The notes under the pieces were generated by a model. The model saw only the letters and a program-made list of their open reading frames with translations, had not been told where the DNA came from and made no database searches. The position numbers and the translations under genes were made by a program. A stretch of DNA of 64,000 bases from Anaerolineae bacterium (GTDB taxonomy: Bacteria > Chloroflexota > Anaerolineae > Aggregatilineales > Phototrophicaceae): positions 6,105 to 70,104 of the forward strand of contig DAOTVP010000088.1 in the NCBI GenBank assembly GCA_034436155.1, in the 5' to 3' direction. Below, in pieces: positions 46,881-49,040 of this stretch (positions within the stretch are counted from its first letter, which is position 1; every line of letters starts with the position of its first letter).

Positions 46881-47794
46881 TTACTCTAATAATATCCCTC
46901 TCAACCGCGCCACTGCATCCGCGTTAAATCCCAAGCGTGACTCGGCATACGCTATCACCCCGCCATACTCGTCATCTAAATAATGGAACACTGCCCGCAT
47001 CGTATCGGGGTGGGCGGCTAATATCGGGAATAAATTGGCGCTATTCAGGTGCAAAAATGCCAATCGCTTTAACAACCGATGAGCGATCTGTTCGTAATGA
47101 TGATAAAAATGGTTGCTCTGGGTATAATCGGCGACAATCCGCTCCTCTGGCACGCCCAACAACGCCAATATCAACGCGACTATCACGCCTGTGCGGTCTT
47201 TGCCCGCCGTACAGTGGATGAGCATGGGATAATTCGCCTCATCGAGCATCAGGTGCATCATCCGTTTGATGGCGGGGGCGTTTTCTTCGAGGATGATGCT
47301 GGTATACAGTTGGGGCAATAATCCCTCTAATTTTCGTGGATTAAACAGCAACAACCATAACCGCTTGGCTTTATCGCCTTCGGTTGCCATGTTGAGTGTC
47401 TCGTGACGCACGCCGTCAAATCGCGGGTCGGGGTCGTTGATGATTTCGTCCTCACTCCGCAGATCGCATATCAGGCACGGTTGGAGCGCCGATAATGCCG
47501 TTTTGCCGTTGAGGGTGATATACGACAGGCTGGCGGAACGATACACCTTGCCCGTTTTCACGGTGTGATTATCCGATGTGGTCATCCCGCCGATGTCGCG
47601 CACATTCACAACCCCTTCGATGGGGATGAATTGCGTATTGGTGGGGATAATCAGGCTTTCGGGCGCGGGGTAGGGGATAGGTCGGCGCACACGCCACAGG
47701 GTGATGCCGATGAACAGCGCACACGCCACAGGGTGATGCCGATGAACAGCGCCAACGCCATGAGGATAATCAGGATGAGCCAGACAACAGTCAT
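46881..47794 (-). pseudogene. Membrane-anchored protein-tyrosine phosphatase (CX5R), frameshifted by a 32-bp tandem duplication
   Basis: Catalytic loop HCTAGKDRTG. The true ATG at 47794 encodes MTVVWLILIILMALALFIGITLWRV, then the frame is lost at the duplication and reading stops at TGA 47653-47651. The long ORF continues in a different frame. Confidence 0.7.
47686..47749. repeat. Perfect 32-bp tandem duplication
   Basis: cgcacacgccacagggtgatgccgatgaacag at 47686-47717 and again at 47718-47749. Confidence 0.95.
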
Positions 47795-47874
47795 TCACAC
47801 CTCCGTTTTGTTCAGTATAGCACAAACCGCAGGTTGTTGAGACACCGATTTCCCTACCGATTAGCATCATCCCT

Positions 47875-48756
47875 TCAATTTTGTGTGGATGCTGAACGCA
47901 ACATGACCGCCCGATAGATTATCACCCCAACAAAAGTTGCCCACAAGGGCATCAGCGCGAAAATACCATCATCACCATAAATCAGCGCAAATATCACCGC
48001 CATGCCGATCATTAATCCCATGCCTGCCCGCACACGCATGGGGTGGGGGTGGGTATTGGTTGCATCACACAGACAATCAAACCGCTTGATTGTCAGAATA
48101 TGAACTATAAATAGGACACTTATCCCCAGAATAATAAGCAATCCATCCCGCGCCACATCCACCAATCCTACATTTAGATAACGCCATATTGGGAGCATAA
48201 TCAACAGCATGGCGAATGAAAAGGTGTATCCCAACGGAGCGTGGTTTGGTAAATTGGCATCTAATAACAGGGCTATTGCTATTACTGCGCCGAAAATCCA
48301 TGCCTCTGTGAATAACATAGTGATAATACCGACACCGATTGCGATGATGTAATCGGGAATTTTGGCAGGAAAACCGACAATCCGATTTACAATTCGCACG
48401 ACTATTATCGCACCTATTAACGCCAGTAAATTGGGTGTGGCGAAAAATGCACCGATAGTCGCTAATCCGAGTGCGACGAATGCCGAATAGGGGGTGTCGG
48501 GGTCGATTTCTCGTGCCAGAATCCACGCTAATAGCGCACTGCCACCACCATAAAATCCTGCCACGATTGCCGACCCTAAATCGCCACCTGTTAGTAAGGT
48601 ATAGACACCCAAAATGATCCCCGCAATTGGTACAAGCACCATCAGCAAGCGGTGTGTTGGGTATACAAACGGGTTAAGCGGGCGTGATAGTGATGTGAAT
48701 TGATATATCAGGTTATTTTGCATCTTTTGCATCATGCCTATCCTAATTTTGTTCAA
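47875..48756 (-). CDS. Integral membrane protein, function unknown
   Basis: 293 aa, about 8 hydrophobic segments, no recognisable motif. Confidence 0.6.
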   Translation of the reverse strand: MNKIRIGMMQKMQNNLIYQFTSLSRPLNPFVYPTHRLLMVLVPIAGIILGVYTLLTGGDLGSAIVAGFYGGGSALLAWILAREIDPDTPYSAFVALGLATIGAFFATPNLLALIGAIIVVRIVNRIVGFPAKIPDYIIAIGVGIITMLFTEAWIFGAVIAIALLLDANLPNHAPLGYTFSFAMLLIMLPIWRYLNVGLVDVARDGLLIILGISVLFIVHILTIKRFDCLCDATNTHPHPMRVRAGMGLMIGMAVIFALIYGDDGIFALMPLWATFVGVIIYRAVMLRSASTQN

Positions 48757-48967: not shown

Positions 48968-49040
48968 TTTTGAGTGGCAAATACTCAAAAAATAAATAAA
49001 ATTCGTTATATTGTTCTTTTTTTTTTTTTAACAAACGTAA

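Follow-up and report, generated by a model that had tools for sequence, protein, structure and literature searches.

In S. pombe, a 55-bp tandem duplication flanked by the microhomology CG causes a reversible frameshift in gaf1 (PMC13688802), and the same article also cites a reversible frameshifting tandem duplication in ssp1. Tandem duplications are likewise reported for phcA of Ralstonia solanacearum (Poussier 2003, as cited in bioRxiv 10.1101/2023.04.27.538605). Here we describe a 32-nt tandem duplication in a phosphatase gene of an Anaerolineae bacterium, located in a stretch of 64,000 nt that was analysed as a whole and is called the window below. With a probability of about 0.8, we consider it a recent, lineage-specific and microhomology-mediated duplication in that part of a Y_phosphatase3 gene which encodes the transmembrane anchor, and it has turned this gene into a null or strongly weakened allele.

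By a direct scan, 68 nt with perfect periodicity were identified at window positions 47685-47752 (C88:53789), consisting of two identical 32-nt units plus a common GCGC; Tandem Repeats Finder reports the repeat as period 32 with 2.4 copies at 47685-47760. The original prediction had placed a perfect 32-bp tandem duplication at 47686-47749, which is this same repeat with its phase off by one base. On the minus strand the region reads ATGGCGTTG, GCGCTGTTCATCGGCATCACCCTGTGGCGTGT, again GCGCTGTTCATCGGCATCACCCTGTGGCGTGT and GCGCCGACC in direct succession. The first copy in coding order (47717-47748, minus strand) is read in the native frame and encodes part of a transmembrane helix (...LFIGITLWRV), and the second copy (47685-47716, minus strand) is read out of frame from the native start, as CSSASPCGVC, and encodes LFIGITLWRV in the frame of the phosphatase. 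The GCGC microhomology common to both unit ends (47749-47752, minus strand) is part of a quasi-repeat made up of TGGCGTTGGCGCTG at the upstream boundary of the unit and TGGCGTGTGCGCCG at its downstream boundary, which are identical at 11 of 14 positions and spaced 32 nt apart. The string across the two copies is …CTGTGGCGTGTGCGCTGTTCATCGG…, and the duplication junction, GGCGTGT followed directly by GCGCTGTTC, is absent from a one-copy sequence, in which MALALFIGITLWRV is joined directly to RRPIPYP. The locus thus displays both features of a microhomology-mediated tandem duplication, namely two adjacent copies that are identical, as opposed to a single copy in relatives, and the same short sequence at the boundaries.

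The ATG at 47792-47794 (minus strand; ATG 47794), a Shine-Dalgarno sequence GGAGG 5 nt ahead of it (47800-47804, minus strand) and an extended -10-like TGcTATACT (47814-47822, minus strand) are all conserved in the DNA of four relatives, from which we infer that ATG 47794 is the native start of the phosphatase gene; the resulting N-terminus also matches that of the homologues P0001, P0002 and P0003. In these four relatives the start region is near-invariant, TTGTGCTATACTGAACAAAA(C/T)GGAGGT(G/T)TG(A/C)ATGAC, with TGcTATACT itself invariant and the sequence farther upstream unrelated. A consensus promoter scan did not call TGcTATACT, which lacks a good -35, and its conservation makes it a candidate promoter element. 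The product from the native start is a 47-aa peptide (47651-47794, minus strand), composed of a transmembrane helix, with a Kyte-Doolittle 19-residue maximum of 2.96 for the native anchor, and a 21-aa out-of-frame tail. Its sequence, MTVVWLILIILMALALFIGITLWRVRCSSASPCGVCADLSPTPRPKA followed by the stop, was retrieved exactly as proposed for a minus-strand reading from ATG 47794 that ends at TGA 47653-47651.

The undamaged phosphatase body begins with RRPIPYP and runs through the stop codon; it occupies 46881-47687 on the minus strand and lies within a 329-aa ORF (47870..46881, minus strand). This ORF includes both LFIGITLWRVRRPIPYP and HCTAGKDRTG, which bears out the earlier claim that the HCTAGKDRTG body continues in another frame, that of the lower copy. 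Residues 82-329 match Pfam Y_phosphatase3 (PF13350) over the full profile (1-240 of 240) with E 1.5e-58 and 199 bits, compared to a gathering cut-off of 22.2. The catalytic P-loop HCTAGKDRTG, a CX5R motif at 47187-47216 on the minus strand (residues 219-228 of the ORF), aligns with HCTAGKDRTG of PDB 8dhi, which is together with M. tuberculosis PtpB (1ywf) the closest solved structure (E 4e-31 and 2.8e-15, respectively). The predicted product of the gene is a Y_phosphatase3 tyrosine/dual-specificity phosphatase of the MptpB-like CX5R type.

When one copy of the unit is dropped, a single frame of 293 aa with a stop directly ahead of the ATG is obtained, encoding the transmembrane anchor and the PTP domain in one protein, as had been claimed. 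This one-copy reading aligns end to end and without gaps with P0001, P0002 and P0003, which are 293 aa long as well (88.7, 87.4 and 86.0% identity), and within the first 25 residues of the anchor, 20-21 are identical. Since the 293-aa reading fits the homologues in this way, the gene model of an anchor plus phosphatase domain split by a frameshift of +32 nt holds. A comparison with orthologues, which the original prediction had called for, found one copy in all 13 nearest homologues (280-298 aa, 67-89% identity) and the 32-nt insertion in the window only; in each of the 13, a single hydrophobic helix at the N-terminus precedes LWR(V/I)R(R/Q)P(I/L)PYP(A/T/P/L)P(E/D)SLI. At the DNA level, the alignment of the window with four relatives has one clean gap of 32 nt, opposite the window, and no other. 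At the site of the upstream quasi-repeat the relatives read ATCACAGTGTTCTTA or similar (ITVFL, versus MALAL in the window lineage) and lack the upstream repeat, so that the quasi-repeat is to be traced to lineage-specific substitutions. No one-copy allele of the same species was present in the public collections searched, and one copy is therefore taken as ancestral on the basis of relatives at no more than 89% identity; among JGI metagenome contigs, the core of the repeat had no exact match.

NCBI annotates a tyrosine-protein phosphatase of 328 aa from ATG 47867. ATG 47870 and ATG 47867 lie 4 nt and 7 nt, respectively, past the TGA (47877-47875) of an upstream membrane-protein gene. The N-terminal extension of the 329-aa ORF (47688-47870, minus strand) shows no homology and contains no transmembrane segment, its Kyte-Doolittle 19-residue maximum being 1.04 compared to 2.96 for the native anchor. 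Homologous frames in 20 related genomes, none of which has an internal stop, align to the 329-aa ORF from residue 50-86 onward only (from residue 50-55 in four same-genus genomes), so the first ~50 residues are artefactual and the earlier suspicion about the N-terminus of this ORF was justified. In the protein collection neither the 329-aa ORF nor the 47-aa peptide is on record as such, and only the 328-aa NCBI call is found. The 329-aa ORF was also considered as a real protein and rejected, given that its homology begins only at residue ~50 and that it lacks a transmembrane segment and a conserved upstream gene order. The upstream gene itself (window 47875-48756, minus strand) encodes a 293-aa polytopic membrane protein without Pfam match and is found in this lineage only. 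In relatives its place is taken by PIN/antitoxin pairs or other genes, which makes the neighbourhood of the phosphatase variable and rich in toxin-antitoxin genes. The neighbour differs in every relative examined, which implies that a coupling to the upstream gene is not ancestral and argues against ATG 47870 as a conserved start and for a phosphatase gene with signals of its own.

Replication slippage between such repeats is the standard explanation for a tandem duplication. In this gene, lineage-specific substitutions would have created the upstream repeat, absent in relatives, and slippage between TGGCGTTGGCGCTG and TGGCGTGTGCGCCG, 32 nt apart and with GCGC at the junction, would then have produced the second copy. 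The 32-nt insert shifts the frame by +2, after which the native start yields only the 47-aa transmembrane peptide and the catalytic body is left without a start of its own in good context: AAGGG lies at 0-3 nt from ATG 47870 and ATG 47867, GTG 47798 is 1 nt past GGAGG, and later GTG or ATG codons would truncate the phosphatase domain. The allele would consequently be null or strongly hypomorphic, in other words a young pseudogene. From its sequence it is most likely null or strongly weakened, with a weak translation of the body from ATG 47870, ATG 47867 or GTG 47798 as a possibility. A perfect tandem duplication could also collapse to one copy, which would restore the 293-aa protein.

The same duplication, within the same 328-aa call, is present in a second assembly, GCA_037442285.1, on contig JBBIQP010000009.1 (94,380 bp); in the literature no paper naming this accession was found. 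The contig of the window measures 92,288 bp and belongs to a 4.44-Mb MAG of 119 contigs, which the names of the homologues in the databases assign to Anaerolineae, Chloroflexota. Over 10,987 nt the two contigs show 0 mismatches and 1 homopolymer indel. This sole difference, at window positions 49016-49029, is an A13/A14 homopolymer (a T-run on the plus strand) in intergenic sequence upstream of a LacI-family regulator. The two are separately assembled MAGs of one near-clonal population, both with the two-copy junction, possibly from overlapping read sets. The identity of the copies, a catalytic domain free of damage and the occurrence of the allele in this near-clonal pair alone suggest that the duplication is recent.

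Scanning the 4.44-Mb genome for perfect tandem duplications with a period of 10-300 yielded 67 cases. Only about two dozen have a period of at least 20, and most of these are located in apparently intergenic stretches with short ORFs. Chance does not account for a tandem repeat of 32 nt that is perfect. Duplications whose length is not a multiple of three are also mostly located in short-ORF, apparently intergenic sequence, several of them with a GGCGGATATACG-type motif. Tandem duplicates of 31-68 nt occur in such sequence on several contigs, for example at C107:28711, C28:26286, C45:44321, C48:42003, C86:11065 and C80:3782, and stretches of this type bear the GGCGGATATACG / CGTATATCCGCC motif and look like a REP-like dispersed repeat family. 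Two duplications appear to break other open frames. At C113:85320-85341, TGTTCTATCTA is present twice as a perfect 11-nt tandem duplication, and in a one-copy reading open frames of 92 aa and 259 aa fuse into one of at least 324 aa; C113:85320 is probably a second frameshifted gene, for which no Pfam match was obtained and whose 244-aa downstream call has no protein record. At C16:178-223, 178 nt from the contig end, a perfect 23-nt tandem duplication is located in a Big_5 Ig-repeat protein, and a one-copy reading restores the repeat motif TLPxxTVCxV; this may be a genuine duplication or may stem from the assembly of a repetitive gene.

That the two-copy state is an artefact of assembly or library, the organism truly having one copy, is conceivable for a genome available as a 119-contig MAG in which another candidate duplication is located 178 nt away from the end of its contig. 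De Bruijn assemblers do not invent junctions without reads that contain them, and the junction of GGCGTGT with GCGCTGTTC, which a one-copy sequence does not possess, would accordingly have been present in reads; the flanking repeats are moreover too short and too imperfect (11/14) to form a cycle in the graph. The same junction was recovered in the second assembly on a contig of a different length (94,380 versus 92,288 bp). The occurrence of the same two-copy allele in GCA_037442285.1 makes an assembly error, one of the alternatives raised originally, unlikely, and we regard an artefact of any such kind as very improbable. A real duplication could, mechanistically, also be one position of a reversible switch, in which the population toggles by slippage or recombination between one copy (anchored phosphatase ON) and two copies (OFF) as a form of bet-hedging. 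In favour of such a switch, instability is inherent to perfect tandem duplications, the catalytic body has so far escaped damage, and reversible frameshifting tandem duplications are documented for gaf1 and ssp1 of S. pombe (PMC13688802) and for phcA of R. solanacearum (as cited in bioRxiv 10.1101/2023.04.27.538605). Both assemblies, however, are in the two-copy state. A phase-variable locus would have its repeat tract conserved in relatives, whereas neither the duplication nor the predisposing quasi-repeat was found among the approximately 30 relatives inspected, and the quasi-repeat arose by accident, through substitutions of this lineage, and is no conserved device. Two other short duplications in unrelated genes apparently break the frame as well, and the phosphatase duplication fits better with an ordinary mutational background of this kind than with a dedicated switch, which we judge improbable. 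It is also quite improbable that the duplication is one toggle state in a wild Anaerolineae population, with either the membrane-anchored phosphatase turned off or a free membrane micropeptide formed next to an unanchored enzyme; if true, an uncultured environmental bacterium would here be using microhomology-mediated duplication for bet-hedging.

Alternatively, the split gene might be functional in a new form, as a soluble cytoplasmic enzyme and a separate 47-aa membrane peptide, the enzyme being made by termination-reinitiation at ATG 47870 after the upstream TGA 47877-47875, or from GTG 47798. This would agree with the undamaged catalytic domain, with a phosphatase frame that is open back to ATG 47870, 4 nt past the upstream stop, and with the 328-aa protein annotated by NCBI. 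An open run of ~50 codons is, however, unremarkable by chance, and the extension encoded by it has neither a homologue nor a transmembrane segment (1.04 versus 2.96). The Shine-Dalgarno spacing, which is 0-3 nt at the ATGs and 1 nt at GTG 47798, also speaks against this route, as does the gene order with the upstream gene, which is unconserved in relatives, and the anchor is kept in 13 of 13 close homologues, implying that it is important. We therefore hold a functional split gene to be improbable. A recent inactivating duplication, which was among the explanations originally offered, remains the best supported one in view of the identical copies, the undamaged domain and the single copy in relatives. 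Its interest lies mainly in annotation, since the 328-aa entry in both MAGs should be marked as a pseudogene or as frameshifted. The locus also illustrates that a few lineage-specific changes of synonymous scale can be enough to form a quasi-repeat, from which a tandem duplication then starts. The conservation of the anchor, the RRPIPYP linker and the MptpB-like domain in this Anaerolineae genus is a minor descriptive point.

The P-loop of MptpB falls within the pattern HC(T/F)AGKDRTG, which it has in common with the Anaerolineae protein. Like the MptpB-type phosphatases 8dhi and 1ywf, the Anaerolineae protein has a full-length PF13350 domain, and unlike 8dhi and PtpB, the Anaerolineae proteins start with a single-pass membrane anchor and continue with the conserved RRPIPYP linker; a link to secretion or virulence does not apply to them. 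The locus resembles gaf1, ssp1 and phcA in its perfect head-to-tail duplication of a few tens of bases, bounded by a brief microhomology (GCGC in this gene). The duplicated length does not divide by three and so leads to a premature stop, and precise loss of one copy can revert the duplication. It differs from these systems in its host, an uncultured Anaerolineae bacterium represented by MAGs alone, and in the two-copy state being the only one seen, in two assemblies. As a recent inactivating duplication, it is a known kind of event, an ordinary young gene-breaking mutation that bears on no open question. As in other frameshifted pseudogenes rescued by a false start, a long frame with an unrelated N-terminal extension has been annotated as a normal protein (328 aa at NCBI), and with no substantive difference from such pseudogenes the locus is a textbook case of them.
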